A stretch of 60,995 nucleotides of DNA, filler included, from Jimgerdemannia flammicorona (Eukaryota): the NCBI GenBank assembly GCA_003990765.1. It is 3 parts of 3 records of this genome, joined end to end, with 100 filler letters (N's around TTAATTAATTAA, not from the genome) between each part and the next. Parts side by side here need not be neighbours in the genome. Positions count along the whole stretch, not along the records: positions 20,369 to 40,635 come from RBNJ01001721.1; 2 more parts are not named here. The stretch is one strand, 5' to 3'. Under the pieces are notes generated by a model, which did not search any database, had not been told where the DNA came from, and saw nothing but the letters and a program-made list of their open reading frames with translations. Positions 1 through 40,735 of the stretch are shown here, piece by piece; position 1 is the stretch's first letter; each line of letters opens with the position of its first letter. The position numbers were made by a program, and so were the translations under genes.

Positions 1-1502
1 TTTTTTTAAAATAAATCTTCCATCATCCGAAACAGTTGCTTCAGCCGACCGAAGAAAAAAAGGATACATACCACAGCAAACTCCAGTGCGCGCTGGATCA
101 TTGCAAATGTTGAGTTCCAACGCGTACAGACGTCCAATATAAGCTCTTTCGGGGCTAAACTGATTGCCCTACACTGTGCAGCGAATTTGTCTTATCATTG
201 TGGGGATGATCGGACCGACACAACCAGTTTGCGCAGCTTGGAAATTATACTCAGGGCCCCTCCTCTCTCAGATGTTTTGTCTATGTGCGTAAGATAGTCC
301 TGAACAGTGAGGTTCAGTACGTGGGCCTGGCATTGCACATGGTAGCTTTCTGTACTGAAGGCTACATTTTCCTGTTTGAGGCTGGCCACTAAACCTTGGA
401 AAAATGTTGAGTTGTTTGTGGCATTGTCTGTCGTAATGGCCAAAATCTGTACTTGAAATATTTGGTTGATAAGTTTATGTGAAAATAAGTAACCAATAAA
501 ATCTGGTTTGGTTTAGGACCTCTCTCAAAACGCCGACCTGATGGCAAGCCCCCCTTTTTTACCTTAGTGGTGATCCCAAACTCTCGGATACAACTAATAA
601 AAGTATCTGTGATGTTGTCTCCAGAATAAGGGCCAGCAAGTTTGACGAAGTCAAGGGTGAGAGATTTAAGCTGCCAATCGAGGTCAATCCAATGACCGGT
701 AATGCCCAGAAACGAAATTGCATTGGGGGATATCTATGTGTCAATCGTAAATGAAATTTTGCCTGCCGAATTCTGCTTATTGAATGTGAGGTTAAATTGG
801 TGAGCTCTTTTGTATAATTCAGCTTGTAAAGGTCATGGTGCTGCTCTTATTTTACCTGAAGTATCTGGTGGAGATTGTCGTGCTCCTTCCTATAGGCCTC
901 CAGGACATCTTTGCGAATAGTATCGGCACTTGGCAAATATAAATCATACTTGAGGAGGCCAAAGATACTATGCAATTGATCACTCTCGATGGTTGTGAAT
1001 GGCTGGTCTGTGCACACAATCCAGCGAACGAGCCGATTTCGAAATTCTGCCAAAGAGTATGGCTAAAATTTTTGATTAAATGACGTTGTTGGTACAGAAA
1101 TGATCAGGCAATCGGATAAACGTACCCACCACAGCTTGGATGTCGATTTTATTTGTCTCCATGTTCTTTTTGATTTTGTCAGAGTGCTTGTCTTTTATGT
1201 GTCGATTTATGTTCAAAGTTGTACCCCCAAGCATTTTGAACTTCTGGCTGGTGCAGTTCATGGGGGTGGATGAAACAATATCATGTGTGTGTCAAACAAT
1301 ATCATGTGTGTGTCAGACAAAGTGTCAATAGGTGCATCTTAATTTTTTACCTGCAATAATTACAAACAACATCATCTCCTATCTTAGTACAATGTTGCCA
1401 GATTTTGGAGCGAGGATTGCGTGGAAGGTGTGGAACTATCAGGGATGTTTGACTTGAAGCATCATCGGTACTGTGGACTGTTGAAGACTGATCTGTCGAC
1501 AT
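1..1502 (-). pseudogene. hAT-superfamily transposase, intron-containing, inactivated by nonsense mutations; runs off the window start
   Basis: Spliced translation from ATG at 1502 gives a BED finger (RSKIWQHC..VCNYC/SQKFKMLGGTTLNINRHIKDKH), a Hermes-type DNA-binding segment (LVRWIVCTDQPFTTIE), ISFTIDT*ISP..FLGITGHWID, ITTDNATNN, CQAHVLNL and VRSSPQ. Stops at 734-736 (TGG>TAG) and 192-197 (TGA TAA). Confidence 0.92.
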
Positions 1503-16694: not shown

Positions 16695-17531
16695 TCACGT
16701 CTCCTGGTCCCTCCATCCCCCTCGCTCTTCCTCCACTTTCTCATTCCCCTTCGTCTCTTTCTCTTCCTCCACGCTCTCATTCCCCTTCGTCTCTTTCTCT
16801 TCCTTCACACTCTCATTCCCCTTCACCTCTTTCTCTTCCTCCACACTCTCAATTCCCAACCTCCTATACACAACGTCATCCACCACCTCAAACACCGTTT
16901 CCGTCGCCACCACCAATTCCTCCCACCTCCTCCCAATCGCAAACTCCCTCTGTTCCTCCACAAATTCTGACACGTCCTCAATCCCCAACAGGTCTTCCCC
17001 ACTGGCAAATCGCACCGCCATGCCCCCCTTCATCCCCAACTGTATTGCCCGTCTCTTCTCCTTCTCTCCCGTAGGCCCATGATCCGGATCCCATTGCAAC
17101 CGCACCTCCGATTCTGCCACGGCCCGTTGCCATGCCTCACGGTCGCCGTATACGGCCTCGACAAAGCTCGAATGCACTGCCGCGGCGACCAGCTCGTCGA
17201 AAAACGATCGTTTCAGTCGGATCGCCAGCGTCGCCTGTTGGTTCGTCTTCGTGCCCCACCCGCTCCGGTACATCATCCACAAAAAGTTGGTCTTGATCCA
17301 CGTCATCCGCGTCGGAGAGAAGTCGGAGCACCCGGCAAACCGTTGATGCGCCACCGCGTACCGCGCGATCGACGGCTTGTACGCTTGGTAGACCACCACA
17401 GAGGTCGCGTCGTGGTGCGCGAGGATGTGTCGCCCTTCCGAAGGCCAGAGGGGAACTTGCGTGAGGTAGGGAGTCGTGGTGAAGGATTGAGGCGTGGTTT
17501 GGGTGGTCTGGGTGGTCTGGGTGGAATCCAT
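16695..17531 (-). CDS. DUF4291 family protein with charged C-terminal 13-aa repeats
   Basis: Intronless; motifs VYQAY, RMTWIKTNFLWMMYRSGW, VRLQWDPD, RAIQLG typical of DUF4291; tail repeats EEKETKGNESV. Confidence 0.85.
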   Translation of the reverse strand: MDSTQTTQTTQTTPQSFTTTPYLTQVPLWPSEGRHILAHHDATSVVVYQAYKPSIARYAVAHQRFAGCSDFSPTRMTWIKTNFLWMMYRSGWGTKTNQQATLAIRLKRSFFDELVAAAVHSSFVEAVYGDREAWQRAVAESEVRLQWDPDHGPTGEKEKRRAIQLGMKGGMAVRFASGEDLLGIEDVSEFVEEQREFAIGRRWEELVVATETVFEVVDDVVYRRLGIESVEEEKEVKGNESVKEEKETKGNESVEEEKETKGNEKVEEERGGWRDQET

Positions 17532-17940
17532 TTTTTCGGTGTGATAATTGAAATAGATATATATATACTGCCTGCTGCGGCAGTCTTTGCTCTGGTCCCG
17601 TGCTCACAAGGAACAAATTGCCGTCTCGGATTATGTATCTACCTTTTGCATTCAAAATGCATACGTATTTTCCAATAAATGAAAAATAATGCGAAAATTG
17701 GTTGAATATTGAAATTCAGTTTGTAAGGCCGACCATCCAGTGATCGCCAAAGGTATTGGGAAAAGTTTGGGAAGCGTCTATTATGAACGTTCTTGGAACA
17801 AAGGCAGTCACGCTTCCAGGTGACGTATTGTTTTTGCCCTTTTGACATTTTAACCATAATAACCTCAACCCAGAATCCGGATTGATAATCTCTCTCTCCT
17901 GCCGTCCTACAACACCCATCCAGCACCTATTATCGCCACG

Positions 17941-20150: not shown

Positions 20151-20268
20151 CCTCCTAGTGACAGTAAAGCGCAAGGCGCATATATTGAAGCTTTTTTAAA
20201 CAATAGAATTCTGTGGGGTTGGTGCCGTTGGTTGTTCCCCAGTGACCTGCGCTGCGCTGCAAAAAAAA

Positions 20269-20368
20269 NNNNNNNNNNNNNNNNNNNNNNNNNNNNNNNN
20301 NNNNNNNNNNNNTTAATTAATTAANNNNNNNNNNNNNNNNNNNNNNNNNNNNNNNNNNNNNNNNNNNN
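20269..20368. other. Assembly gap / contig linker
   Basis: N44-TTAATTAATTAA-N44, with stops in all six frames. Confidence 0.97.
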
Positions 20369-21860
20369 TTTTTTAAAGTCTCACAGATTTTTATTAGAAG
20401 AGAACCTAGACTATATAGGCCAAAACCCTTTTCCACCACCCTCTAAGCACTACACTCTCATTAACTTAGACTAGTTATTGTCCAGCAGCTCAACTATACT
20501 AGGTATAGCAGGAGTTATAAATCACCATATCTTATTCTATATACTATACTCTTTCTACTACTAGAGAGTAAATAACCATATATCTATAACTAAAGATATA
20601 TGCCTGAAACTCCAATATATATACAAGGCTAGGCCCAAGCTAATTTGCATAGCCTCTACTATCTCAAGTAGAGTGACAGATAAAAAAAACCCCTCATCAA
20701 AGTACAGAATAGTAGATAGAGTCTAATTCTCTCAGATGAGATAAGAGGAGACCTCCAATACTCTACTACTCAAGTCTGCAGGCCTTGATTATATTGCTAT
20801 ATTAGCTCTTGGTTCTAATTGAGTGCAGCCAAGATGTCTGATCTAGGTAGCCTTGGGCCCTCTAACTATTTTCAATAACTGGAGCCTAATCTCATATATT
20901 ATTAAAAGTAGCTGAGAGTAATATCTACTATCTAACCACTCTGTATCAATTAGAAGACCCCACTGATATAGTATCTGCCCCAGCCCTGATAACTGCCCCC
21001 AGTCTGGTACCCTACTGATTCACTATAATCACTATTTCTCCTATCTATAATTGGCTATCTTCTCTCTCATCTCAATTCTATAAAAACAGTCACTTATACC
21101 AGTACTACACTTACTAGAAAGCTTGCCAAAGTTCAGAGGGCCTCACTACAGATACTGAGAATCTACAGGTAACTTACACTGGTACTTGATACCCAAGGTT
21201 GACCAATAGTCTATATAGCTCATAATATACTCAGATAATATCTTATTGATAATAATAAAGAAAGAAGGTGCTGTATCAAAATAAATATACTCCAGATATA
21301 GCCAGAGATATTAGAAACTGTGAAAAAGTAGAGAAAGTACTGATATGACACCAATAAAGGGGTAACTCATCACCATTATCTCTCTTCCACTATGCTCTTA
21401 TAGATATAGTAAATCAACCTGAGATAAAGAGAGAAGAATAAAAAGAAAGAGACTCAGAAGATTGCCTATCAATCTTGTGACTGATATAGTAGTAGAGAAA
21501 AGAGGCCTACTCTTTCTCTCTTAAACACTATCAAGTTACTGATTACTGCAATCTTCCTACTATTCCTCTTATACATATATCCTCTCTATTAAATATCTAT
21601 AATGACTCCTCTGGAGGCCCCATCCTCTCCACCACCAAGACAGAATATCTATTATCAATCCCTCTCACCTTGCCACTCTCTCTCCCAAAAACATCCACTA
21701 CCTATCTTTGAATACATATTGCCAGTATCCAACCAATCTCACCTATATTACTAATATCTATCTAACTATAAGTAACTCATTGCCAACACTCCCTATTAGT
21801 CTCTCCCTTAGGCCATCCTATCTCCCCTCACTCTCACCAACCTGTCACTACACCCAAGAA
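20369..21860 (-). mobile_element. Decayed LINE 3' end (ORF2 C-terminus plus ~1.1-kb 3' extension)
   Basis: Reverse complement of ~21520-21860 resembles the ORF2 C-terminus at 40290-40630; the rest matches 46076-47250 and 22015-22565; T-tract at the gap edge. Confidence 0.75.
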
Positions 21861-22014
21861 TATTTAGATCTTATTATAATAGATATATGTATTAGTATAA
21901 TAGAATTATATATCAAGTGAATGAAAGAGGTTGATGACATATAGTGAATGGCAATCACATAATCAGATGATGACATCACATATAAATGAGTTGAATGAAA
22001 TGAGCAAGACCATC

Positions 22015-22501
22015 TTAGCTGCACTCAACTAGAACTGGGAGCTGACATGACAATGTGATTGAGGTCTACAGACTTGAGTAGTGGGGTATTTGGGGTCTCC
22101 TCCTGCCTCACATGTAAGTTCTTTACTTATCTTAACTGAGAGAACCAGGCCCTATCTACCATGATGTACTTTGATAAGAGTTTTTCTTTACCTATCATTC
22201 TTCTTGGAGTGGCAGAGACTATTCTATTTGGCTCAGGCATGGCCTTATATATATATTGGGATCTCAGGCATGTGCTTTTGATCATTGGTATATGGCTGGG
22301 TTCCCCCTGGTGGTAGAGAGAGCATGGTGTGCAGAATGAGATGTAGGCCAACATAGGCTCTGCTGCACCTGGCATAATTGAGCTGCTGGACAATAGCTAG
22401 CCTAGGTTAATGGGGGGGCAGTGCTTGATGGGTGGTGGGGAAGGGTTTTGATCTATTAGTCTAGGTTCTCTTCCAATAAAAATCTGTAGGACATTGAGTC
22501 C

Positions 22502-22565
<64 letters not shown>
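22015..22565 (+). mobile_element. Short 5'-truncated LINE tail with long polyA
   Basis: Inverted homology to 20375-20840 and 46100-46580; AATAAA near 22475 and ~60-nt A-tract. Confidence 0.8.
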
Positions 22566-22725: not shown

Positions 22726-24965
22726 AGTAGGGATGATTATGTCTGAGACTTTTTATAGCCAAAAGGTGGTTTCTTTTATATTTTGCACAAAATAAGATCT
22801 TTCCCACTTAGGCTCCAGTTTTTGTGACCATAAAGCTTCCACTATATTCTGATACATCAGGACTTTATCTCCTATCTTGATAATCTCTAGGAACTTGTGA
22901 ATTTTTTCTATATTATTCTATTGTAGTGTCTGCACCTTAGTTATGTAATCTTCAGCCTTCTTTCTGATTTGATATAGCCTCCATATTTCTGTGTCCACAT
23001 GTTTCCATATAGTATCTCTATTGGACAATAGAGTTTCTTGAGAATTTTCTTCAAACAGCATCTCTCAAGAGGTGAAATGAGTACTTTGTAATCAGATATC
23101 CCAAAGAGCAGATAATGCTATTGTTAGATAGTGATCTCAATTTTTGTAGTTATCATAGAACTTGGTGATGACATTCTCAAGAGTCTTATTGGTCCTTTCT
23201 ACTTATCCATTTTCTTGAGAGTAGTATACTATAGTCTGAATATACTAGATCTTATACTTCTTATAGAGAACCTCAAAGAACTAGTTCACAAATTCTGTTT
23301 CTCTGTCTGTGGTTACTTATACTGGGGTCTTAAATTGGCAAATGATTTCTTTGTAGAAGAAATCAGCAATTGACTGTGTATTGACTTTCTTGAGAGATCC
23401 TACTTCTATCTATTTCATAAAAAGGTCTACAATGACTATGATGTATCAGTTGCCAATCAAAGTCAAGGGTAGAGGGCCAATCATATCCATTACAATGTGT
23501 GCAAATAGTACTAGTTCTATATATGCTGATCCTGGGATCTTATTTTGCTGGTCTTGTTTCTGTTTCTGATATTTATTACAGATATTGATAAATTGTCTGA
23601 TATCTTTCTCTATTCCTGGCCATCACATTGTTCTTCTTGCTTTATCATATGTGTTTATTCCTCCTAGATAGCCAAGTTCATATACTGATTTCATTGCTTA
23701 CTCCTTCTTATGTTTGGGTATAACTAATAGTTTTCCTTTCTTCAGTATTTCTCCATCAGTCTCAAATTGTTTCTATATTCTATTAATAATCATTTGTGTT
23801 CATTCTTCCAGATATTGGGACATTTTTTGCTATCTCAGATAGATGATGATTCTGTAGTAGAGCTTCTTATTATTTATGATTGATTTGCTAGTTAGGGGTC
23901 CTTTGGAGTATCTATAAGAGAGTATTTGCATTAGTATTGGTTCTTCTTAGACAGTACATGATGGTTATATCATAGGCTTGCAACTTCATAATCTATCTGG
24001 CATAGATTCCTTTAGGTTACCTAGTGGTCAGTAGTCAAGTGAGGGCTGAGTGGTCTATCTGAATAGTGAAGTATCTTCTGCTAGGTAGTAGTGAAACTTC
24101 TCTATAGCTTAGATAACTGTAAGACATTTTAACTTATAGGATTTATACTCTTTTTCAGCTTCTTGAGTTCCTTGGCTGAGATATATGATGATATATTCTA
24201 TCTTGTCTTTCTTCTGGGCCAGGACTGTTTCTAGTTCTTGGGACTTATATTTGTCTGCAGGATAAATTCTTGAGTCCAATCAGGTCTTCTGAGGATGGGT
24301 GTCTGGGTCAGTCTGACCTTAAGTTCATCAAATACTTTTTATTGTCTGCCAGTCTATTGGAACTTGGTATTCTTCTTGTTAAGTTTATTGATTGGGTCTG
24401 CAATGTTGGAGAATCCTCTGATAAATTTTTGGTAGTAAGAGATAAGCCTCATGAAGGCTTGAGCTTTAGTAACTATGGTGAGCCTTAGGTATGCTACTAC
24501 TGCTTGAATCTTGAGGGGGTCTATGTGTGTTTCATATTGATTGATGATATGGCTAAGATAGATAATCTCAATTTCTGCAAACTTATACTTCTCAAGCTTG
24601 ATGTAAAGACTATACTATCTTAGCTTCTCTATCATCTGCTGAATATACTGCAGATATTCTTTAGCTGTCTTGCTGTAGATGATATCATAATCTACATAAA
24701 CTATCATCCATCTTCCCATGTTATAGTGAAAGATTTTATTCATTATTTGCTGGAAGCTCACAGAGATATTGTACATTCTGAATGATATTTGCAGATAGAC
24801 ATAGATTCTGTCTGGGGTAATGAAAACTGGCTTTTTGCTTACTGTTTCAGTGAGACCAATTTGGTAGAATTCTGAGTATAAGTCTAAGATACTACAGTAC
24901 TGTACTTCATCTCTCAAGTTACAAGAATGTTACTAATGAGGGGTAATAATTGTCAATGTTTCTAT

Positions 24966-26466
24966 TGTCATGTAGTGGTCGCTGAGTTCTTCAAATACAC
25001 TAGATTCTCTTCAAGGTGTATCTCTTAGACTAACTCAAGTTGTTATAAGCAAGTTCTTATTGGAGTGCCTTTCTAAGGTCTTATAGTCCTCAAACTTCTT
25101 ATCTTTAACTGTCTTGTTATCTCTTAGATTGCTTGCAAGGAAGTGTGTGTATTGTACTGAGAAGAACTGACTTTATTTCAGAGGAAATAAGAGGGGTATT
25201 TATACAAAATATAATTCAATGGTTGCTAAGATATAAAGCTAAATATAAATTCCAATAACTAAAACTACTAAGTTCCAGGGCTGGCATTATTTAGTGTCAC
25301 ATCAAAAATGCTGGTGCTGGAACAATTTCACATCACCTCAGAATACTGGTGCTGGCATTATCCAGTATAACACAGAACTTAAAGCAGAAAGTTCAGGACT
25401 ATGGGAGCTTTATTCTCATCATCATCATCACTGAAGGAGATGAGATCTGCGAATTTGTCATTTTCACATACTTCGTTATGTGTCTCATGTATGTTGATAT
25501 CATACAGGATGATGTCATCACTGATGACGTCATCACATTCAGCTATAGCAGGAAAATCGGGAACAAGATCTGGAGCTCTCCAGTCTATGAGGTTCTCTTC
25601 CACAAAATAGGGAACAAATGTGAGGTCTTAGGGAGGTCTAACCTAGATGCTTGGGCCTTAGAATACTGAGATCAATTCTTGCAGGAATTGGTCTGGGTTG
25701 TCTTGAAGGATAGGGTGCCAGAAGTCTTCTACTTCTTTGCTGTTGAGGGTGATAGTGGACTGGGCTTCTGTAGTCACCCTGGCTTCTAGTACATTGATAC
25801 GGTGAGATGATAGGTCTCTGAAATCTGAGACTCTAACATACTCCAAGTTGGGGATTGACCATAGTGCATGCCTGAAGATCTGATGGATCTTCTTAGCTGT
25901 TCTTGTTTCGCATATATCCATGAGAGTGGCATCTTATAGCTCTTGGGTGCTGGCCTGTGGGAACTCCCAGCAGAGGAGGTTTCCTATTTCATACTCCTGC
26001 TACATTTGGAGGCATTCGGTAGCAATGGTGATCCTTGTTTCCATTTCATGGCAGTAGAGAATGAAGTGATAAGGGTCCGCAGTACCCAGGTTGACACTAG
26101 GAGTCCTTCTTGAGTGGGTCCTCATGGCTCTTCTGATGTCTTGGAACATCCTTTCCTCAACCAAGATACCTTGGTGATTCCTTGACCTTGAGGTTTGGCA
26201 TGCAGCAGGTATTTTTGTTTATGGTAAGTCTTTGAGCTATTTTGAGATTGATAGTTCTTGTTGGTTACTGCTACTGCGGTTCCTTGATCCTTCTTTTATA
26301 TTCTTCAGGATACTTGTACTATAGTCACAATGACTCACAGTTGGTCATCATTGCTCATCTTGTATGCCGTATGATCTTCTTATGCTCCGATCTGGTGGCT
26401 TGCAAGAAAAGACTGTCTCCTGTGCTGATGTCATCATTCTGGGGTCACCATTATACTATGTAATCA
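24966..26466 (-). mobile_element. Solo LTR of Gypsy family B (~1.5 kb) nested in the RT of family A
   Basis: Reverse complement of 30566-32087; termini TG..CA. Confidence 0.88.
25379..26465 (-). pseudogene. Relic accessory reading frame (~360 codons) in U3 of LTR B
   Basis: One frame runs from the LTR edge (DYIV*W*PQNDDIST..) through EERMFQDIRRAM, YCHEMETRITIATECLQ, MDICETRTAKKIHQIFRHALW to an acidic tail DLISFSDDDDENKAPIVLNFLL*. I saw no frameshift, and the stops are of the kind made by single C>T/G>A changes. The same peptide occurs at 30818-31030 (+). Confidence 0.65.
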
Positions 26467-29400
26467 ATGTTTAAACCCAAAATATATATATGTATATATG
26501 TATATATATATGTCTTATTTGGGAAGTCCAAAAAAGGAAAGGATATGAAAAAGGGAAAGAGCTATAAAGTTCAGCCCAGCCTGGCAGAAGCAAGCATGGA
26601 AAAAAAGGAAAACCAAAGAGGGAGATGGTAGGTGGGAAAAAGGAGATGAGTGGTAGAGTGAACAAGTGGTAAAGCAGATAATTGAGTTATTCCACTGAGT
26701 GTCCAATGTGTAAGCAGTATATCTATCTTAGGTACTAGCTAGCATATATGAATTGCATAGAGGTACAAAATGTCTTTGGTACTAAATGTCTAGAATCAGC
26801 ATATATATACAATGTAAGACCTCTTCACCCACTTCTAACCTGTGACTGCAAGTAACTAATTGATACATATTTATTGACTCATAATCTCGATTGATATTAC
26901 CTATGTAATCTTTCTTGATAACCAAGTTGAGCTTTCTATAATTAGTACAGAGTCTTGGAGTAAATTCTTCTAACTTGCTTTCTTTTTTTGAGACTAGTAT
27001 AACTAGTGAAGCCCAGGGGCTACTGGCTTCTTTAATAATACTGGCTTCTTCTATCTGCTTGATTTCTTCTCTGAGCCATTTGTAGTAGGCTGGTAGTATT
27101 GGTCTTGCTTTTTGATAGATTGGTTCAGTATCTTTTGTATCTACATTATAATAGTAGTGTGGGGTCTTTTCTTTGATATTCTTGAAATCTGTAGCTAGAA
27201 TATTCTTGAATTCATAGAGTATCTTCTTGAGTTTCTTCTTGAGTGAAAATTTATTTTCAATGGTGTAGTTATGCTTGTTCAGAGTTTCCTCCTTCTTGTA
27301 ATCCAGTTTAGTGATCTTAGCACTAGTAAATACTCCTCTTTCTGTAGATCTGAATCCTTTCCTTCCTCTTTCCATTTCCTCCAACTTCTTGACTTCCATA
27401 ATTTTTAGCTGAAGAACTGGAAAGATCAACATCTATATCAGTTAGTCTTTCTTCTTGATTGGAAATAGAATTATAGGATTATAGTTTCTAGCAATAAGTA
27501 GTATTTCTTCAATATAATCTGAATCAATAACTCCTCCTTCAATTATAATTTCACTCCTAGCCAGACTGCTTCTTGTCTTGAGGATTCTAATATAGTCCTT
27601 TGGAATAGTCATCTCCAGACCAGTTGTAAGTAGAGTGATTGTCTGGCTCTAGTATAGTTTTTTCTACTATGGTAATATCCATTTTGGCTGTATTTTCTGA
27701 CTTATATTCTAGTAGAACTGCATCAGGATAGATTGTTCAAATCTTGACCTTTATTTCTTCTTCATCATCACTGTCCTCCAGAAGAGCTAGTAGTTTGTCA
27801 TCCTCTTTCTCCTTCTCCTCTTCTCTTGCCTGCTTCTCAAGAGCCTTCTGTTTTCTTTCCTGATAGATCTTTCTGATATTAATGCTACATTGGTAGCAGT
27901 CATTGATATGCTCACTATAGTATATCTTGATTCTATAGAGGCAGACTCCTTATAGTGTATATCCTTCTGTGATCTTTCTGCATTAGTTTTCTTTACTAAT
28001 CTATCTAACTTTCTTCTTCTTTTTCTGAATAGTCACTATATAGACTTCTTCTTACTTGCTTTCTTCTTCCACTATCTTAGATAGCACTTCTTTGTTGATA
28101 TTAATGGAGATTTATATCTTCTGGCCTCAGTAGATGATCTGCATCTTCTGAACATTCAGATTAATTATTGTCTTGGCTTTGTAAAGTCACTGGTTGCTGA
28201 TGAGGATGTTATAGTTGGTGGCATTGATCATGATCACATTTACTGGGATAGTTACTCCCTCAAATTTGATGGGAATATCTTGGATCTTTCCCAGAGATAT
28301 AGTCCTTATACTCTACTGTGATAAATATCAGCTTGGTTGCTTCTTCAACCTCCCAACCTAGGCAGTCTACTGCTTTCTTACTAAGGAGACATCCTTCTGC
28401 TCCTATATCAATAATGGCCTTGAAGTATTCTATCTTCAATCTGACAGATTATATAGGCAGAGATCTTGTAATTATCTTTGCTCTCTTCTCTCTGGGTTTT
28501 GTGAAGTTTCTTCTTTTTTTCTCCTTCACTGACTAGAGTGGTTTCTTAAATGATATCTTGGACAGCCTGTTTCAGCTCTATATCTTAATCTATTTCTTTA
28601 TCTTAACATTCTATAGCAGTCTCTATCTGCTTTTCCACAGAGTTCTTCTTAGGTCTCCCTAATGGTCTCTTATAGGATTACTTGCAGACATCTTTCTTAA
28701 TAGTCTTGATAGGGTAGGCTTCTCATTCCTCTTCATCTGATTTCCCAATCTCCTTGAAGGTAATATTCCTTATTTCAAGTAGTATTGCTTAGCTGGGCCT
28801 TATACTTGGTTTTATTCATATATTTATATAAGTAGTGATCTTCTTCTCTATAAGTATAGCAGATATCTCTCTTTTTATCTGAGATGGTGGCAAATTTCTA
28901 AACTGGACACTGGTCTCTTCTTTTAATTTTCTTTACTACATCTTCTAAATAGGCTGTCATTTCAGTAAACTTCTTGGTAAGTTCCTCCATAGGGTCACTA
29001 TTTCTCTGCTACTCAGTAGCTCTTAGCTGAGGTATGTTTTGATTAATCACTATAGTAGGGATCATACTGGTTGCTTGGAGTGGTTTGATTCTAACTCCAG
29101 TGACTCTTTCCATTATATGGTCTTGTAGGTATCTGGCTATCCAATATTGCTAGATATAGGTAATCTTTTGTAGTAGATCTAAAACTATTAGTGATGAGTA
29201 AATAGCTAGGACTATTTCTAGGCAGACTTCTTTTATGAAGATTGCCTTAGCTACTTAATCCTGAATGACATCAGCATAATCTATAAGAATTATCTAATAT
29301 TAGATTCTGGTGTAGAATGTGTTTGGATCCTTACTTATTCCTTAACAGGTTATATTAAGTTGATCCTTCAGAGTATGCTTGATCTCATCTGTATAGTAGG

Positions 29401-30565
29401 TGGCTTGAAGCCAGGTCTTCTGTGCTGCTAGCACTATATTGTCATCATTTTCCACATAGGTTGTGGCTGCAAATACTGCTCTTGCTGGTCCTCAGAGACT
29501 GAAGAGTATGAGAGCTACTTGCTGTATTGCTGTCAAGGTCCTTACAGCAGCATACTGCTCAAAATCATCAATGAAGATAATGATTGATTCATCTGAAGTA
29601 TATTCATAGAATATTGGTAGTCTCATATCCATCTTGTCTAGATGTCTTAATTCGATTTATATGGTTGTTCTGGTGATAGCAGTTATTTGTTATTTAGCTT
29701 AAAAGTGAGGAATTAATCTTAAATCACCAGCCAATAGGCACCAAGTTGTAATGTAGCAGACACATAACAGTATAAGTATATCAGATTTCTGTATCTTGAA
29801 AACTTGATCTTCTTTGACTCTGTAGAGTCCTCAGGAGATAGGGGTGGGTGAGTTTGAAGTATATCTGCCCACAGGCCTATTAGTTTCTTTGATTTCTCTT
29901 TTGCTTTGAACTATTTCAATCTGAGGTTTATTTACTTTGGATACTGAGATATTTATACAAGTTTGCTAGCTATAAGATAGCTAAGTTATGACTATGTTTT
30001 CTATGAGTCATTTTCTATAAGTGTAAATTCTTTATATCTGTACAATCTCTATAATCATGAAGATTCTACATCTGTAGAATTTCTATATTTATAAAGTTTT
30101 TACATTTGTAAAAATATGACTGCTATTTATAAGACTATACTATATTTAAGAATCAGATTCAGATACATACCATGATCAAATATCTATTCTCCTGATTTAT
30201 ATTACTAATTCAGATCAACTATCACAATTGCCAAGATTCTCTATAAAGTTATTTTAAGACAAACTTATTTACTAGATTATCCATGATAGTCAGCCTTTTA
30301 TAGTTATTGAGAATTTAGAGCTAAAAGATCTTTTTGTCTTCTGAAACTGGACATTACTATTTATTCTACTGGAACTATATGAAATAAAATTAGACTGGTC
30401 TTTCAATGAAAATGTGATATTGTTAAAATTATACTATTGGTAAGATTTAATATTTTAATATTAAATATGAATTTGAATATTTTAAAGTTAAATGGCTTTG
30501 AATTGATCTTATTTTGATTTATTTATTTAAAAATAGAATGTAGCTAGTTAAATATTCTTTACTAT

Positions 30566-32523
30566 TGATACATAGTATAATGGTGATCTCAGAATAATAA
30601 CATCAGCACAGGAGATAGTCTTTCCTCACAAGCCACCATATCAGAGCACAAGAAGATCATATGGCATATGAGATGAGCAATGATGACCAACTGTGAGTCA
30701 TTGTGACCATAGTATGAGTATCTTAAGGAATATAAAAGAAGGATCAAGGAACTGCAGTAGCAGCAACCAATAAGACCCACCAATCCCAAAATAGCTTAAA
30801 GATTTACCACAAATGAAATGTCTGTCACTCACCAAATCTCAAGATCAAGAAACTACCAAGGCACCTCAGTTGAAGAAAGGATATTCCAAGACATCAGAAG
30901 AGCCATGGAGACCTACACAAGAAGGACTCCTAGTATTAACCTGGGTACTGCAGACTCTTATCACTATATCCTCTACTATCATGAAATGGAAATAAGGATC
31001 ACTATTGCTACTGAATGCCTCCAAATATAGCAGGAGTATGAAATAGGAAACCTCCTCTGCCAGGAGTTCCTACAGGCCAGCCCTCAAGAGCTATAAGATG
31101 CCACTTCCATAGATATACATAAAGTAAGGATAGCTAAGAAGATCTATCAGATCTTCAGGCATGTACTATAGTTGATCTCCAACTTGGAGTATGTTAGAGT
31201 CTTAGACTTCAGAGACCTATTATCCTGCTGTATCAATACACTAAAAACCAGGGTGGCTATAGTCTACTATCACCCTCAATAGTGATGAAGTAGAAGACTT
31301 CTGACATTCTATCCTTTAGGACAACTCAGACCAATTCCTGCAAGGATTGATCTCAGTATTCTAAGATCCAAGCATCTAGATTAGACCTCCCCAAGACCCT
31401 ACATTTGTTCCTTATTTTGTAAAAGAGAACCTCATAGACTGGAGAGCTCCAGACCTCCTTCTTACTACTGCCAAACATGATAATGTCATCAGCAATGACA
31501 TTATCCCATGTGACATCAAAGTATGTGAAACACATGACCTATATGATGATGATGAATTCACAGATCTCATCTCCTTTAGTGATGATGAGGATGAAGCCCC
31601 CATGGTCCTGAATATTCTGCTCTAAGTTCCTTGGTGATACTAAATTGTTCCAGCACTGGCATTCTGAGGTGATACTGAATTATTTCAGCACTGGTATAAT
31701 ACTGAATTATACCAGCATCCTGAACCTGTGTAACCATCAGTGCTGACCCTAGAACTTAGCAGTTTTTCCTATCCTGGCATTTTATTTTAGTTATTGGAAT
31801 TTATATTTAGCTTTATATCTTAGCAACTATTGAATTATATTTTGTATAAATACCCCTCTTATTTCTTCTGAAATAAAGTCAGTTTCTCTCAGTGCAATAC
31901 ACACACTTCCTTGCAAGCAATCTAAGAGATAACAAGATAGTTTAAAGATAAGAAGTTTGAGGACTATAAGACCTTGAGAAGGTACTCTAATAAGAACTTA
32001 CTTATAACAAACTTATAGTTAGTCTAAGAGATACACCTTGAAGAGAATCTGATGTATTTGAAGGACTCAATGTCCACTACATGACAATGTATATAATATA
32101 GTCTACTCAGTGCAATATACACAATTCCTTGCAAGCAATCTAAAGAGATAATAAGATAGTTTAAAGATAAGAAGTTTGAGGACTATAAGACTTTGGAAAG
32201 GCACTCCAATAAGAACTTGCTTATAACAAACTTATAGTTTGTCTAAGAGATATACCTTGAAGAGAATCTGATGTATTTGAAGGACTCAATGCCCACTATA
32301 TGACAATGTATATAATACAGTTCCTCTCAGTGCAATACATATACTTTCTTGCAAGCAATCTAAGAGATAACAAGACAGTTTAAAGATAAGAAGTTTGAGG
32401 ACTATAAGACCTTAGAAAGATACTCCAATAAGAACTTACTTATAACAAACTTGAGTTAGTTTAAGAGATATATCTTGAAGAGAATCTAGCATATTTGAAG
32501 GACTCAGTGACCACTATATGATA
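30566..32523 (+). repeat. 5' LTR of Gypsy family B: U3 ORF relic (to 31625), short repeats (31635-31720), TATAAATA (~31845), AATAAA (~31872), triplicated ~220-bp 3' end
   Basis: Homology to the solo LTR; followed by a PBS; repeat units at ~31886, 32105 and 32323. Confidence 0.88.
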
Positions 32524-32526
32524 ACT

Positions 32527-32543
32527 TAGTGCCCATTGGCTGG
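32527..32543 (+). promoter_or_regulatory. Primer-binding site shared by families A and B
   Basis: T(A/G)GTGCCCATTGGCTGG 3 nt after the LTR end; family A has TGGTGCCTATTGGCTGG. Cognate tRNA not determined (His- or Gly-like acceptor). Confidence 0.75.
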
Positions 32544-32579
32544 TAATTCAAGATGAATCCCTCACTTTTAAGCTGAAAA

Positions 32580-35500
32580 ATGAACAACCCCCACAATAAC
32601 TACCCTGACTACAAGAGTCACCCCTACAAGAATTCAAGATAAGATAGAAATACATCTCCCCACATTCTATGGATATACTACTGAAGAGTCAATTCTGACC
32701 TTCATTGAAGACTTTAAACAATTCGCTGCTATATGAGCCCTTGGTGTGGATGTACAATTGGCCCTTCTGCCAGTCAGCCTCAGAGGACCTGCCAGAGATA
32801 AGTTCAATATAGCCACTATTGCTGATAATAGTATAGCCAAACTTGCCAACATGAAGGCCTTCCTCAGAACAACATACTATACTGAAGAGATTAAGCAAGC
32901 TCTCAAGGATCAACTCAATACTATCTGCTAGAGACTCAGTAAAGATTTCAACTCATTCTATACCTGAATCTACCACCAGATTGTCTTGGCTGGCTATGAT
33001 GATACCCTCAAGGAACAAATAGTGGATTCAACCTTCCTCAAAGGAGTTCACCCTGAAATTGTCCTAGCAATCTGGTTTACCCTAGCTGCACTGACCCTTG
33101 ATCAGAAAGTGGTCTTTGTACAGAGATATTGGACTATCAGACATCCTGCTGAACACTCAATGGAGAAAATAACTAATATCAAGATAGAGTCATCGAAGCC
33201 AACCAGTATTATATCCACTACAGTTGTAATCAGACAATCATCCCCATCTACCCCCAAGACAGCCAAAGCTGACCCAGTGGAGGAACTCACCAAGCAGTTT
33301 GCCAAAATGACTACACACCTTAGTGATATTGTTAGAGAAGTCTGAAGTACCAACAGGAGACCAGTGCAGAGATTTGCAGCTACTACAGAAGAACACAATA
33401 TCATATACTTCAGATGTAGAGAAGAAGGCCACTATGTAAAGAATTGTATGACTGAAACAAGATGCAAAGTCCAACCAAGCAATGCTAGCAGAACCAGAGA
33501 ACAAACCAATACAGTAGTCATTGAGGAGATTGGTGATACTGATGATGAAGAATACTACAAGGAGCTTGAATTCTACCCTGCTTTTGAAGATACCAGAACC
33601 TGGTCTAAGTCCTATGACAAGAAGAGCAACAGCAAGCCAGTTGGAAGACCAAAGAAGACCTCAGCTGTTACTATTCAAAGCAAGATCCAACCTGAGGAGA
33701 TTGATCAAGATATGGAGTTAGATGAAGCTGCCCACCAAATTATTGAAGGCACTATTTCAGTCTCAGGAGAAAGTGAAAGCAAGAAAGAATAGAAGCTGTA
33801 TAAGACCAAGATCTACCAGTATGATATCTACAAGGACCTCAAGAAACAGAAGACCAATGCTACTTTTGGACAACTAGCTAAAGTCCCTACCTTTAGACAA
33901 TAGTTGAGAGTAGGACTTGCAACTACTGCCAAGAATCAAGAGTACAAGATTATAAAGGCTCACAATGTACAAGAAGAATCTGAAGACTCAGGCAAAGAAT
34001 CTGAAGACTAGTGCAAGACATCAGCCTATATCTCATGTCAAATCAAAGACTGTATCTTTAATGCCATCATTGATACTGGTACTGGAGGATGTCTTATGAG
34101 CAAGAAGACAATTGACCACCTAGGCTGGGACATTGAAGAGTCCACCAAGATGGTCTATGTTACAGCAGATGGTATATGAGCTACTCCTCTTGGCAAAATC
34201 TGAGAAGTCCCCATCAAGATAGAAGGAGCTACTATCCCAGTAGATGTGATTGTTACAAGTACCACCAACTATAACATCCTTATTGGCAACCAATGGCTTT
34301 ACAAGGCCAAGGCCATCATTGACCTCAATGCCCAGAAGATGTAGATTAACTATAGAAGAAGAAAGGTATGAGTCTCTATTAATGTCCACAAAGGAGTCCT
34401 ACCAGATATGGAGAAAGAAGATAAAGAGGACACAGAAGTCTTCATGTACTTGGTGAATAAGAACAAGAACAAGAACAAGACATCCAAGCTCACAGATGAG
34501 TAATAGTACAATAAGATCATTGATGATTATGCCCCTTAAGGAAGATACCCCCATAGTACTAGGATGTACTGCTCTGAACACCTGAATGACTGCTGATTCT
34601 GTATCAGTGAAGTCAGGAAAATCTGCCAACAGAAGCATGAACAAGAAGCTGCCAAAGCAAAGAGGAAAGCTGAAGAAGATGACCAACCCCCCAAGCTTCA
34701 AGCTAACAGTGATGATGAGGAGGAACAAGAACCAGATATCACCCTCAAGGTCAAGAAGTTCTACTCTGAAGCCAAGATCCCAGAATACAAGACTGAAGGA
34801 GCCATAGAAATAGACCTTATCAGTATTAAAGATGCTATCCTTGAACTACAGACCACTACCCTACTTGGCACCAGAATTGGAGTCAAGCTGCCAGAGAACC
34901 ATACTGGAATTATCAAGACTAGGAGCAATCTGGCCAAAAGTGAAATCTCAGTTGAAGGAGGAGTAATTGACCCTGATTACACTGGTGAGATCTTTCTCAT
35001 AGTCAGGAATTACAACCCCATCACTCCATTTAAAGTCAAGAAGTATGACAGGATTGACTAGATACTGATCTACAAAATCAAGAAGCCCAAGATCACTGAA
35101 GCCATCAAACTCATCAAGACCAAGAGAGGAGAACAAGGCTTTGGATCTACAGGAAGAGGAGCCTATACTACTACCAAGATTACCAAACTTGAGCACAAGA
35201 AAGACAAGGACCAGAACAAGCATACATATATCATTGGAGAAAACTTTCCCCTGAAAGAACAACTTCTCAAGATCCTGTACCAGAATAAAGAAGTACTTGC
35301 TATAGACTTCAGGGATATTCACAATCAAGAACCCAAGTACTATCATGAAGTTGATACTGGTGATACCAAGCCCATCTATCAGAAAGCCAGACCCATACCA
35401 TCTGCCTACAGAGAATAGCTGTAAGCAGAACTCAAGGAAATGGAAGAAGCCAGAATTATCAAGCAAGCTATCAGCCTCTAGGCTTCACCCATTGTCCTTG

Positions 35501-37263
35501 CCCCAAAGAAAAGAAGCAAGTCTGGAGAGTTTGTACCAAGACTCTGCATTGACTATAGGAAGCTCAATGTAATTACCAAGAAGAATAGGCAGCTTTTGCC
35601 AAATATTCAAGAAATTCTTACTACTCTTAGAAGTAAAGCCAAATACTACACCACCTTGGATCTGTTTCCAGGCTTCTATCAGATTAGTCTCACTCAAGAT
35701 GCCAGTGAGAAATCAGCTTTCATCATATCTGATACCACCTATATCTACCTGCAAATGCTATTTGGAATGTGCAATGCTCCAGCAAGTTTTCAGTAAATAA
35801 TGAACAGAGTCTTCAGCAATGAAATTGGAAAATGGCTCTTTGTCTATATTGATAATGTGATTATCTTCAGCAACACTACATGGGAACATATCAACTACAT
35901 ATAACTAGCTCTCAAGAAGCTCAAGAAGCATGGCCTCTATATCAAGCCCAAGAAATGTAAGTTTGCAGCTTAGAAAATTGCCTACCTAGGACATCTCATC
36001 AACCAGACTAGAATCCACACAGACCCCATAAAGATCAAGGCTGTTGCAGTCTACCCAAGACCCAGAACAACTACAGAAGTCCATGCCTTTCTTGGACTGG
36101 CCAGCTACTACAGAAGATTCATCAAAGAATACTCCAACATTGCAGCACCTATCTATGAGCTACTGAAGAAGGAAACCAAATTCAAATAGACCAAGAAATG
36201 CCAAGAAACCTTCAATGAACTCAAGACCAGGTTGACCCAAGCATCTATTCTCAGAAGCCAGATTGGAATCTAGAATTCATTCTGCAGACAGATGCAAGTA
36301 CTATAGGACTTGGAGCAGTCCTAGCTCAGAAGAAAGATAGACATAAATATGTCATCTCTTATGCAAGCTGAGATACCCACAGAGTAGAACAAAACTATAA
36401 GTTATGCAAGCTTGAATACTTAGCAGTAGTTTGGGCAGTAGACAAGTTCCACTACTATCTAGCTGGGAAATACTTCACCATTCAAACAGACCATTCCACT
36501 CTTGCCTGGCTATTCTACACTCTGAACCCCAAAGGAATATATACTAGATAGATCTACAGGCTGCAAGAGTATGACTGTACTATTAAGCACCACTCAGGAA
36601 GAACCAACACCAATGCTGATGTACTCTCAAGGATACCCCGAAACACTCCCATCAAGACTATTCAACATAAATAAGGAGTTATACTATGGATTAATTAACT
36701 ATCTTGGACAGTGGAAGATGCTCAACCACCTCAAACCCTAGACAATCACCATCATTAACCAGACTTGGAAATAGTTTGAACTAGACAACACTATACTCAG
36801 AAAAGGAGGAAATCTAGTAATACCTGAACATAAGAAGTATCAAGTAATGAAGAAAGTATATAAGCAAGGATACTTAGGAGGAATCAACACATATGACAAG
36901 ACAAAAAGAACCATATGGTGGTCCAAAATAGAAGAAGACCTATACCAGTTTATCAAAGGGTGTGACAAGTACTAAAAACAGAAATAAGATCAGCAAGACT
37001 AGGCATCCAGGTCATCAAGAATTGAGTCTATCCCCTTCCACCACATTGCAATAGATATTGTTGGACCACTACCAGTAAAACTATCAGGAAACTGCTATAT
37101 TATAGTTATTGTAGACCTCTTTATCAAATGGATAGAAGCAGGAGCATTATAAGAAGCCAATGTCCTCTCCATAGCTGACTTCCTGCACCGAGAAATCATC
37201 TGCCACTACAAGATACTGAAGCAAATCACAATAGACTGCAGCACAGAATTTGTGAATCAAGAA
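32580..37263 (+). pseudogene. Gypsy family B gag-pol (essentially one frame): capsid, CCHC knuckle, protease, dUTPase, RT, RNase H, integrase (truncated by LINE)
   Basis: YFRCREEGHYVKNC; AIIDTGTGG; ASPIVLAPKK..PRLCIDYRKLN; LFVYIDNVIIFS; LQTDASTIGLGAVL; PFHHIAIDIVGPLP. Many transition-type stops. Confidence 0.93.
34744..35153 (+). pseudogene. dut: dUTPase domain within Gypsy pol
   Basis: LKVKKFYSEAKIPEYKTEGAIEIDL; IKTRSNLAK; VEGGVIDPDYTGEI; YDRID*ILI; TKRGEQGFGSTG, i.e. the five trimeric dUTPase motifs. Confidence 0.93.
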
Positions 37264-40200
37264 CTGGGGAGATCGACTGGTCTGGGGTGAATGATGCAGG
37301 CCAGGGTGGGAATCAGTGAGGGTGGGCTCATGCTACTGCCCGGCGGCTAGGGGAGAGAGGATTGCTTGGATCAAGGAACTACTGGAGGAGGGCATTCTCT
37401 TAGAGGATGGGGTTGATGTTCTTGGGGGTGATTTTAACATGGTTTGAGATTTGCAGTTGGATAGGACTGATGGAGGAAGACATGCTGGTGGGAGGAGTGG
37501 TGGTCTGGATGCATGGAAGGAGGTGGAAAACCTTAGCTCCTTAGGGGATATGGGCCGAATGTGGTGGGGTGACACCAGGGTCTACATGCACTGGGTGAAT
37601 GGCTTAGGGACAAGGATTGACTGGATTCTGACAGCTGAATGTTGGGGTGCTGATGTCTGGAAGACTTTGGAGGTGGTGTGGTGCCCGTGGTCTGATCACT
37701 GGGGACTGATTGGGCAGGGGCAGTTTGGGGGAAGTGGAGATGGACCCAGACATTGGTGTCTTAACTCCTCCCTGCTGGCTGAGAAGGAGTTGTGGGACTC
37801 ATGGGTAGAGGAGGTACAGGCAAAGCTTCCGTTTTGGAGGCAGGAGGGTTTATCTGTGGGTGTCCGTTGGATGAGATTGAAGGAGGCTGCAAGGGTTTAT
37901 TGGGGAGGAGCTGGTAGGGAGGCGGGAAGAAGGAGGAAGAGGTGAGTACAGTCTGCCTCCAATAGGCTGAGGAGATTGCAGTTGGAGTGGGCAGATTTGC
38001 TTGCATCTGATGAGGTGGAGGATTGGAGGTTAGTGAGGGCGAAATTGGAGGTTGTAGAACTGCAACAGGTGTTGCGAGAGGAGGAGGAGATTCATATGTG
38101 AGGTATGGCAGCCAGGCTTAGGTGGCAGGGGCTTGAGGAGGGGGAGCAGCCTACTAGGTACTTGTCTAGGCTCCTCAAAGCCAGGCAGGTGAGGCACAGG
38201 TGGGATGGGATCTTGGATGCAGAGGGAGAGCTGGTGTGAGGCACACAGCAGATCCTGGGAGTGCTGAAGGAGAATTGGCAGGATCTGTAGAGTGAGGAAG
38301 AAGGGGGTGCTGATGCAGAGGCAATTGGTGACACACTGGAAGAGTGGGAGCTGCCACAGGTAGAGGGTCTGGGTGACTTGACCTTACCTGTCCAAGAGGA
38401 GGAGATACAAGGTGTCCTGGCAGCGACTAAGCTTGGGACAGTGCCAGGGGAGGATGGGTTACCGTGGGACTTCTGGAAGAAGATGGTGGAAGTCCTGGAG
38501 ATGCTGGGGGAGATGGCGGCCCTCTGTGACTATGTTCTTCTGAATGGCATGTGGGTTGGTGAGCAGGACTTAGGGCTGGTGGCCCTATTGTATAAAGATA
38601 AGGGCCGGCGTGAGGATTGGAAGAACTGGAGGCCAATCATACTGCTGGATATGGATTGGAAGTTGGTGACTAAGGTGATTGTTGCAAGGCTACAGAAGGT
38701 TACTCAACAGGTACTAGGGGAGGAGCAATGGGGCTTTGTAGGTGGTAGACTTATAAGAGATGGAACTGCCTGGGTACATGGCATTATTAAAGGTGCCCGG
38801 GCCTGTGGACTGGATGGGAGACTGGTCTTTTTGGATCAAGAGAAGGCCTACGACCATGTTCAGTGGGTTTGGTTGGGCAAGATACTGGACAGAATTGGTG
38901 TTCTGCTACAGTTTCGCGCCTCTATGTTGAGTTTATTGGAAGGGAGTTGAGCAGCGCTGATGTATAATGGTCACAGGGGTTTGGTGTTCCCCTTGGGGAG
39001 AGGAGTCCCTCAGGGGGACCCTCTGTCCCCTATCCTTTATGCACTCTCCTTGGAACCTTTGATGGACAGGATCCATAAGAGAGTGACTGGGCTCTCTGTA
39101 TATGGTGTGGAATGGAAGGTGGGGGCCTTTGCAGATGACATGGTGGTTGGACTTGGATCAATAGCAGATGTAGAGGCTCTTCGAGAAACAGTGGAGTAGT
39201 ATGAGGCACACTCTGGAGCAAAGCTCAACTAGCATAAGTGTGAGACAATGGTGCTGGGGAATGGGCTAGTGGGAGGGGATGTCATTGGAACAATTGTTCC
39301 CACAGGAGAGGTGGTGCAGTACCTAGGTATCTTCCTCTCCGTATATGGATCAGTCCTACCGTGAATATGGTGGGAGAGGAGGGTGGCCATTTGGAGAGAG
39401 GCTCTAAAAGGCTGGGGGGGTCGTCACATCTCCCTGGCAGGGCGGGTGGTGATTCTGAATGTATACTGGTTCCCCAAGCTGTGGTATGTGGCATATTACT
39501 TAGACTTTCCTGCTTGGGTGGTGAAGAGGCTGATGAAACTGACTAGGGAGTGGATTTGGGCTGGTAGAAGGGCTCAGATCAGTTGGGATACCCTTGTTGA
39601 GCCAGTGCTTAGGGGAGGCCTGGGCCTTGTGGATTTCCCTAAGTGTCTATACTGCCTGTGAGCTTAGTGGTTGAGAAGGGCGGTTGATCTACAGGGTGGA
39701 GGTTGGGTGCCATTGATGAAGAAGGTGTGGGAGATGAGAGTCTCCCCCCGGGGGTCTACAGGGGATCTACTCTCTTTGGTGGGTCTGAATGGGAGCCAAC
39801 AGTTATGGTATAAGGGCTTCTGGTGGGGAGTGGTTGAGGGGGCACACTGGATAGGCCTGCACTGGCATGGGAATGAGGGGGAGGAGGTATGGGGTCCAGC
39901 TATGTGGTGATGGAACTGTCTGCTTCTAGGGGGAGTTCTGCTAGCTGAGTTTGACATTGGTGATGGAGTAGAGTGTCAGCAGTGGATTGGACAGGATCTT
40001 TGGCCGAGTAGCTGGCAGGTGGTGAGGATTGGTGAAGAGTGGGATTGGGCACGGATCTGGTCTTGGTGTACAGAGGTCCGGCAGTGGCTCCCTCCCAAGT
40101 TCTGGGTAGTATGGTGGCATATGTTGTGGAGGAATGTTATGTTGAACTTCCGTGCTGGGCATCTGATGGATGGGGGTCGGCTGGATTGTGAGGAGTATTA

Positions 40201-40635
40201 TAATGTTGGGCAAGTTGGGGGTTTTGTGCAAACAATGGAACATTGGCTGGGAGAGTGTGAGGTTCTGAGTGACTTTTGGATAGCTGTAGGGGACTACCTT
40301 GGAGTTGTAAGGAGACAAGATGGGGAGAGAGGTCGCTGGGAAGATCTGGAGTCTAGACTTGTGGGAGGTGTCAGTAATAGGTGGCTTACTGTAGGATGGA
40401 TTGTAGCAGTGTGGGTGGGGTTGGCAGGACATTGGCTCTTTGTTTTTGAGGAGGGATAACAGATCAGGATACAGGAGAAGTTATTGCGATGGGAGGAGTT
40501 GGTGGCGGATTTGTTGACAGGGTGGTGGGTTGGGTGGGGACTGCAAGGTGGGCAACATCGCCGTCTGGTGGAAGGGATCTGTGAGCAGAGTGGTGGGTGG
40601 GTGGCAATGGTGTTTGACAAAGTGGTTTTTCGTCG
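37264..40635 (+). mobile_element. L1/Tx1-clade LINE ORF2 (APE endonuclease C-half, RT, C-terminal Cys/His region), 5'-truncated, inserted in Gypsy B integrase
   Basis: VLGGDFN, TRIDWIL, WSDHWG; PGEDGLP, NWRPIILLDMDWKL, FLDQEKAYDHV, GVPQGDPLSPILY, FADD, LAGRVVILN, GGLGLVDF. Scattered stops. Confidence 0.93.
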
Positions 40636-40735
40636 NNNNNNNNNNNNNNNNNNNNNNNNNNNNNNNNNNNNNNNNNNNNTTAATTAATTAANNNNNNNNN
40701 NNNNNNNNNNNNNNNNNNNNNNNNNNNNNNNNNNN
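40636..40735. other. Assembly gap / contig linker
   Basis: N44-TTAATTAATTAA-N44. Confidence 0.97.

Follow-up and report, generated by a model that had tools for sequence, protein, structure and literature searches.

Long terminal repeats (LTRs) of retrotransposons are usually treated as non-coding promoter and terminator modules; they are masked in annotation, and the dating of insertions assumes that they evolve neutrally. Whether one such repeat, in the fungus Jimgerdemannia flammicorona, carries a gene of its own is the question raised by the DNA described here. The window analysed is 60,995 nucleotides (nt) long and consists of three parts of assembly GCA_003990765.1 joined by filler; its middle part (RBNJ01001721.1) holds two copies of an LTR, family B, one of them solo and the other (the plus copy) forming the 5′ LTR of a Ty3/Gypsy element, element B. 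An earlier note on this DNA had proposed that the LTR family encodes an extra protein, and this is borne out. Because intact homologues exist, the start and stop are conserved and purifying selection is specific to the frame, we conclude that the U3 region of this fungal Gypsy LTR holds a genuine, conserved gene, pseudogenised in the window, in a layout otherwise familiar from retroviruses. Our fuller reading, which we regard as probable, is that family B is a dUTPase-encoding Ty3/Gypsy family with a protein gene lying wholly inside the U3 of an unusually long LTR, for which expression from its own promoter and a trans-acting product are proposed.

The two copies, the only ones of the family in the window, are 81% identical across 1547 aligned columns, and the open reading frame (ORF) of each is a pseudogene, killed mainly by C-to-T and G-to-A transitions (Table 1). 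The solo relic has five internal stops (26002 TAG, 25936 TAA, 25660 TAA, 25645 TAG and 25630 TAA). The plus relic has, besides its stops, an 8-nt deletion near 31258/31263 that shifts the frame and in-frame deletions of 9, 3 and 6 nt. Both end at a common terminal TAA (25381-25379 in the solo copy, 31623-31625 in the plus copy), ~175 nt 5′ of the block TGTATAAATACCCCTC and ahead of the 219-nt repeats. A tblastn search of the window with the ORF family finds the two LTR-B copies and nothing else, and the solo relic aligns to an intact homologue as one segment, 26212-25382, free of frameshifts as the earlier note had stated. Between the two LTR copies 181 of 203 substitutions (89%) are transitions, 105 of those (58%) in CpA/TpG context, and the plus copy retains no CpG. 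The decay resembles repeat-induced point mutation (RIP), in what is apparently a Mucoromycota genome, outside the groups with established RIP. The same note had stressed that only transition-type stops interrupt the solo frame; this carries no weight, because every stop codon lies one transition from a sense codon. Since two dead copies cannot reveal selection against each other, external relatives were needed.

Queried with the read-through translation (P0002), a word-indexed search gave four proteins at E ≤ 0.01 among 971 candidates. The close relatives are all uninterrupted, at 247 amino acids (aa) for P0003, 271 aa for P0004, 215 aa for P0005 and 247 aa for P0006, and identity to the solo-relic translation is 82% for P0003, 69% for P0004 and 53% for P0006. 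An exhaustive profile search of 1,835,955,588 representatives gave five clusters at E ≤ 0.001 and added the divergent P0008, P0009 and P0010 (28-46% identity) together with a fragment, P0007; the intact homologous ORFs span 215-342 aa. At the five stop positions of the solo relic, in the order given above, the homologues carry W, Q, Q, R/Q and Q. No relative was found among 91 pattern matches in viral contigs, and the one match in contigs of prokaryote genomes, 15 residues long (L003, on the same contig as L002), was dropped as spurious.

Both ends of the frame are conserved. All four sequences that reach the N-terminus (P0004, P0008, P0009 and the ORF of a metagenome contig, L001) begin with MPA or MPP at one column, which falls on 26212-26210 (solo copy) and 30818 (plus copy). 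Because the relatives share this start, the gene has ~277 codons and not the ~360 first claimed; the two copies do share a frame and a terminal stop, as had been noted, but coding starts ~250 nt inside the LTR rather than at its first bases. Judged from these sequences, the gene is ~270-340 codons long across the family, with a conserved MPA start. At the other end, P0003-P0005 finish in LNFLL like the window frame and P0006 in LNFRL plus nine residues; an LNF-type end is found in six of the seven relatives reaching the C-terminal region, and P0010 ends differently. The suggestion that the ORF begins ahead of the 3′ LTR fails on the position of the conserved ATG and on the in-frame stops upstream of it: 5′ of the ORF start the window copies differ by an insertion or deletion and share in-frame stops, and L001 has an in-frame TAA 60 nt ahead of its ATG. 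Longer, fused forms were absent at E ≤ 0.001 from 2424 candidates of 476-2000 aa, which is weak evidence.

The contig L001 (1345 nt) also supplies DNA context. It contains an intact 323-codon ORF at 69..1040, with GAATATAAAAG on the 5′ side and, ~165 nt beyond the 3′ end, TGTATAAATACCCCTC followed by an AATAAA-type signal, here GAATAAAC. Both window copies and L001 have the TGTATAAATACCCCTC block unchanged (16 nt identical in all three); GAATATAAAAG is the same at 11 of 11 bases in all three, with variable bases adjoining it, and the bases immediately 5′ of the ATG are similar in all of them. The order of TATA-like box, ORF, core TATA box and polyadenylation signal is therefore kept at 62% nucleotide identity across the ORF. 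In the window the ORF occupies LTR positions ~255-1088, ahead of the core TATAAA at 1263 and the AATAAA at 1290, and the order in L001 is alike.

Selection was assessed by the method of Nei and Gojobori, with the L001 ORF set against the frame of the solo copy (271 codons, stops skipped). The comparison gave pN 0.288 and pS 0.715, hence an omega of ~0.15 that is approximate, dS being saturated and the codon alignment protein-guided. Decay of the solo copy adds neutral changes and can therefore only raise omega. Codon positions 1, 2 and 3 hold 94, 72 and 140 differences, respectively. On one nucleotide alignment, pN/pS was 0.40 in the ORF frame, 1.07 and 1.20 in the shifted frames and 0.97 and 1.09 in two antisense frames; the third antisense frame (reverse, offset 1) gave 0.58, and its third positions are taken to coincide with those of the ORF.

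Four public sequencing runs (X1-X4; two soil metagenomes and two from organisms) were placed on the LTR at 80% likeness and gave 1852, 442, 52 and 248 short contigs. The runs retrieved with the LTR sequence are mostly soil metagenomes, and none of those listed is registered as RNA, X3 and X12 being RNA by surmise only. The copies found there are less decayed than those in the window. Transitions again make up almost all differences from the window LTR (148 of 163 places in X1), and two of the stops read CAA by majority: 25936 (X1 609.4/649.7; X2 90.8/104.5; X3 838.1/838.1; X4 38.3/38.3) and 25630 (X1 557.7/565.2; X2 58.8/62.9; X3 598.3/598.3; X4 no cover). By our reading of the contigs, three from X2 cross the start position with ATG-CCT-GCT-GCC-CGC-CAA.

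The encoded protein was called unrecognisable, with an acidic tail, and both descriptions stand. P0004, the L001 ORF, P0008, P0009 and P0010 have no counterpart in Pfam at E ≤ 1, neither relic translation matches a Pfam family, and a PDB profile search gave no match at E ≤ 1. The intact homologues P0003, P0004, P0009, P0010 and the L001 ORF carry a net charge of -20 to -34, and P0008, which is shorter, one of -8. Acidity builds up after residue 60; the stretch before it is mildly basic in the close relatives. Conserved motifs are W-x-EYEI, HQ[IV]F-x-H-x-P, WNP-x-L-x-DNPDQ, F-[QE]-GPP, VPYF and IDWR, and a terminal P-x-x-LNF-x-L is conserved after the acidic run. The ten invariant columns form no catalytic-looking pattern. 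An AlphaFold2 model from nine sequences is poor (mean pLDDT 53), with moderately confident helices at ~54-150. With this model as query, Foldseek found no match in the PDB at E ≤ 0.001 (best E = 1.0) and VIA-align wide none at Z ≥ 5 (best Z 4.3); because the model is poor, these two fold searches are inconclusive. The best score in the ESM Atlas, 0.83 with TM ≤ 0.33, is noise by the calibration of the tool. The protein has a helical core and an acidic C-terminal tail, and from its sequence is probably non-enzymatic, a regulatory or adaptor protein. As far as these comparisons reach, the family is an orphan, with no Pfam, PDB or fold match and five clusters among 1.84 billion representatives.

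Several observations weigh against our reading. Both ORF copies in the window are dead, and four of the five solo stops are also present in the plus copy. Either the window copies descend from an already-broken ORF, which would make the ORF dispensable in cis, or CpA/TpG sites were hit in parallel; we cannot tell which. The stops restored in the public runs are two of the five positions, those that fall among the 40 listed of 272 differences. L001 is the only DNA context beyond the window, and because it has no LTR ends, primer-binding site (PBS) or gag, its LTR nature is drawn from the common promoter block alone; moreover it starts exactly at the upstream TATA motif, and TATA-like strings are common in AT-rich DNA. 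Stop depletion is by itself not significant: the frame as first claimed has 11 stops in 364 codons of the solo copy, against 14-30 in the other five frames, and a frame with 11 stops or fewer arose in 7.8% of 2000 first-order Markov simulations that kept the base-to-base transition frequencies (p ~0.08). The approximate omega and the poor structural model belong on the same side.

The broken copies with their four common stops would also suit an ORF that is a mere passenger, that is, a host gene or piece of one captured into an ancestral U3 and without a role, the intact relatives being the host gene itself or recent transductions. The elements could have spread with no ORF; L001 is the one relative seen in its DNA context; and the related element A, with its ~465-nt LTR, does without it (none of its three LTRs in the window matches the LTR-B ORF family). 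We nevertheless consider this improbable. Selection acts on the frame between two LTR lineages at 62% nucleotide identity that keep the same ORF-to-TATA arrangement; the five clusters in 1.84 billion representatives include no larger host family; no Pfam domain is present; and the LTR copies are highly repeated in all four runs.

The limits of the repeat could instead have been misjudged, with the ORF in the 3′ internal region or in a small nested element and the true LTR comprising the 400-900 nt after it. The window lacks a 3′ LTR of element B for comparison, the ORF segment has its own TATA-like box, and 434 nt of unexplained DNA lie ahead of the solo copy. However, the ORF segment precedes the PBS and gag in element B and therefore lies in the 5′ LTR. 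The solo and plus copies begin with the same bases, and the solo copy is embedded in element A, whose reverse transcriptase (RT) sequence flanks it on both sides; AGAAA at 26915-26911 and 24963-24959, on its outer sides, is a candidate 5-bp target-site duplication, a weak reading. In contigs of runs X2 and X4 a purine-rich tract ending AGGAGGAAGATG lies just ahead of the LTR start, 5′ of the ORF segment, and in contigs of X1 and X2 the undecayed PBS form CTTGGTGCCCATTGG (which begins TGGTGCCC) follows the LTR end. A 10-nt direct duplication, GATTACATAG (26910-26901 and 26464-26455), frames the 434-nt stretch, which has no obvious terminal inverted repeats; this explains the stretch as probably a later insertion into the first bases of the solo LTR-B, seemingly a small one whose target-site duplication is long. 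An ancient nested insertion may have turned into LTR, but this would be the origin of the gene and not a different present-day state. Misjudged limits thus seem very unlikely. A tandem-element artefact was rejected on related grounds, the solo copy being embedded in the RT of another element and the plus copy preceding a PBS and gag.

A chance frame in a long non-coding U3, for which the simulations and the trivially transition-type stops leave room, is already refuted by the intact relatives and by selection, eight independent intact ORFs matching at E 1e-15 to 1e-122, the start and end being conserved and pN/pS being low in the ORF frame only, and deserves practically no credence.

Given a gene within U3, how might it be expressed? 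Lying 5′ of the core TATA box, the ORF of the 5′ LTR is left out of the genomic RNA, whereas that of the 3′ LTR belongs to its 3′ untranslated end. The conserved GAATATAAAAG, 60-85 nt ahead of the ORF start, a leader between the two that contains no ATG in L001 or the solo copy, and the downstream AATAAA suggest a separate mRNA of ~1.1 kb. We propose that a TATA box of the gene's own, near LTR position 167, would drive its transcription and that the AATAAA of the LTR would end it; 5′, 3′ and solo LTRs alike would then each form a self-contained unit of transcription, ~1.1 kb long. As an alternative, the ORF, lying at the 3′ end of the genomic RNA, could be read from a subgenomic, spliced RNA. 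The own-promoter mode of expression is advanced tentatively, its prospects falling a little short of even. The product would act in trans as a non-enzymatic accessory factor, as a regulator of LTR transcription or as a partner of a host factor; any single role, taken by itself, is unlikely. It is possible, though on balance rather doubtful, that every LTR, solo ones included, is an autonomous cassette making a trans-acting nuclear factor that activates the LTR promoter or blunts host silencing.

Table 1. Features of the LTR-B locus and related elements, in window coordinates
Feature	Position	Strand	Remarks
Solo LTR, family B	24964-26466	-	~1.5 kb; single copy of the 219-nt repeat; nested in the RT gene of element A
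Relic ORF, solo copy	26212->25379	-	277 codons + stop; start ATG decayed to ATA (26212-26210)
GAATATAAAAG, candidate TATA box of an LTR-internal promoter	26293-26303	-	~85 nt 5′ of ORF start; TATAAA at LTR position 167
Core LTR promoter block TGTATAAATACCCCTC, TATA box for genomic RNA	25189-25206	-	TATAAA at LTR position 1263
AATAAA polyadenylation-type signal	25172-25177	-	27 nt past TATA box; LTR position 1290
434-nt stretch, unique in the window	26467-26900	-	between the RT break of element A and the solo LTR-B
5′ LTR of element B	30566-32524	+	1959 nt; PBS-like sequence, then gag downstream
Relic ORF, plus copy	30818->31625	+	ATG intact at 30818; 7 internal stops
Tandem 219-nt unit, three copies	31880-32524	+	R/U5 part of the LTR; solo LTR has one
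PBS-like sequence	32527-32543	+	2 nt past LTR end; TGG decayed to TAG
Element B internal region	32525-37300	+	gag, protease, dUTPase (~34768-35154), RT, RNase H, integrase; Pfam matches, read-through translations
Family A LTR	29764-30228	-	~465 nt, GC ~0.2
Family A LTR	41283-41707	+	~465 nt, GC ~0.2
Family A LTR	44999-45435	+	~465 nt, GC ~0.2

Element B itself has the domain order of Ty3/Gypsy (Metaviridae): gag-asp_proteas/RVP_2, RVT_1 (E = 2.8e-24), RT_RNaseH (5.3e-29), Integrase_H2C2 and rve. The dUTPase claimed for it is genuine (PF00692, E = 9.4e-22) and occupies residues 748-876 of the read-through frame, between the protease (503-591) and RVT_1 (1005-1156). Element A also encodes a dUTPase (PF00692, E = 6.2e-12), and the internal regions of the two elements are ~72% identical. 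Element B is broken off near 37300, at a break in composition, and has lost its 3′ end. The block that truncates its integrase, 37300-40500, is GC-rich (0.51-0.53) with a positive GC skew of +0.36 to +0.43, and within it an RT fragment (RVT_1) lies at 38291-38950 on the plus strand.

In the remainder of the window, the LTR pair at 41283-45435 encloses ~3.3 kb only and marks an internally deleted A-type element. Just past the integrase end of element A the plus strand has a 61-nt poly(A) run (22505-22565), near which lie large inverted repeats (20415-20836 and 22011-22456). Two pairs of 44-N runs, each with 12 bases between its members, bracket the transposon-rich block at 20269-20368 and 40636-40735; the first pair gives rise to a spurious 61-nt perfect palindrome at 20263-20374. 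Neither the Rfam nor the tRNA scan of the window gave a match. The flanking genes (RabGAP-TBC, DUF4291, Rieske, HCNGP) are eukaryotic, with long exons. The best named match of the DUF4291 ORF (16695-17603, minus strand) is from Endogone sp. FLAS-F59071 at 68% identity; the other 119 matches listed are 52-60% identical, and the eight of them with an organism name are all bacterial (cyanobacteria, planctomycetes, myxobacteria). It may be that this fungal lineage obtained DUF4291 from bacteria. From the flanking genes and these matches the host is probably a member of the Mucoromycota close to Endogonales; the prevalence of soil metagenomes among the runs fits this but contributes little.

Among known systems, the closest in layout is the sag gene of mouse mammary tumour virus (MMTV), a complete ORF of ~300 codons inside U3, 5′ of the LTR core promoter, so that each LTR carries it, as does the 3′ end of the genomic RNA. 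The LTR-B ORF likewise lies wholly within U3, upstream of the core promoter. Pfam contains a family for the MMTV superantigen, whereas the LTR-B protein is without sequence similarity to it (no Pfam family at E ≤ 1); the host here is a fungus, the Gypsy element has no env, and the protein is acidic, with no sign of being a membrane protein. The nef gene of human and simian immunodeficiency viruses (HIV/SIV) and tas/bet (bel genes) of foamy viruses are 3′ accessory genes that overlap U3 and whose products are non-structural and trans-acting; foamy viruses use an internal promoter. The likeness is that of an accessory-type gene in U3, with a possible separate promoter analogous to the foamy-virus one. 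However, nef and tas/bet start upstream of the 3′ LTR and merely overlap U3, whereas the LTR-B ORF starts ~250 nt inside the LTR and ends ahead of the TATA box, and no homology was detected.

Extra ORFs of plant retrotransposons offer a different comparison. The plant ORFs (ORF0 of Ogre/Retand/Retrosat2 and antisense aORFs) are lineage-restricted, without an assigned function, faster-evolving than pol and under selection; for ORF0, Ka is 0.26 and Ks 1.65 (PMC3485330), much like the values for the LTR-B ORF. They are internal, either ahead of gag or in the stretch from pol to the 3′ LTR (PMC3485330, PMC7264820), whereas the LTR-B ORF is within the LTR; none of the wordings 'in the LTR', 'within the LTR' or 'inside the LTR' occurs in PMC7264820. 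The dUTPase of element B is not new in its position, since a dUTPase between protease (PR) and RT is already described for fungal Gypsy elements (PosPlaTy3-5 of Postia placenta; Phanerochaete; Tuber Tmt1), which share the order gag, PR, dUTPase, RT, RNase H and integrase (INT) with element B (PMC2864245), and for bdelloid elements (PMC5408684). The portion of PMC2864245 at hand mentions no LTR ORF in its descriptions of the fungal elements, whose hosts are Dikarya, where the present host is probably Mucoromycota. The literature searched, with most subscription journals outside its coverage, holds no report of an ORF inside a retrotransposon LTR, and an earlier description is possible.

The finding bears on how LTRs are understood. 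A conserved gene in U3 can place part of the LTR under purifying selection, which biases LTR-based dating, and solo LTRs could still express the protein. If every LTR is indeed an autonomous cassette, solo LTRs would serve the family as a store of helper genes and not be inert scars, and an early-diverging, Endogonales-like fungus would harbour a retrotransposon equivalent of retroviral tas/tax/sag. The orphan protein family is abundant in soil metagenome reads, and its role in conflict between element and host is now directly testable. The type of gene organisation known from complex retroviruses (sag, nef, tas) arose also in a fungal Gypsy element.

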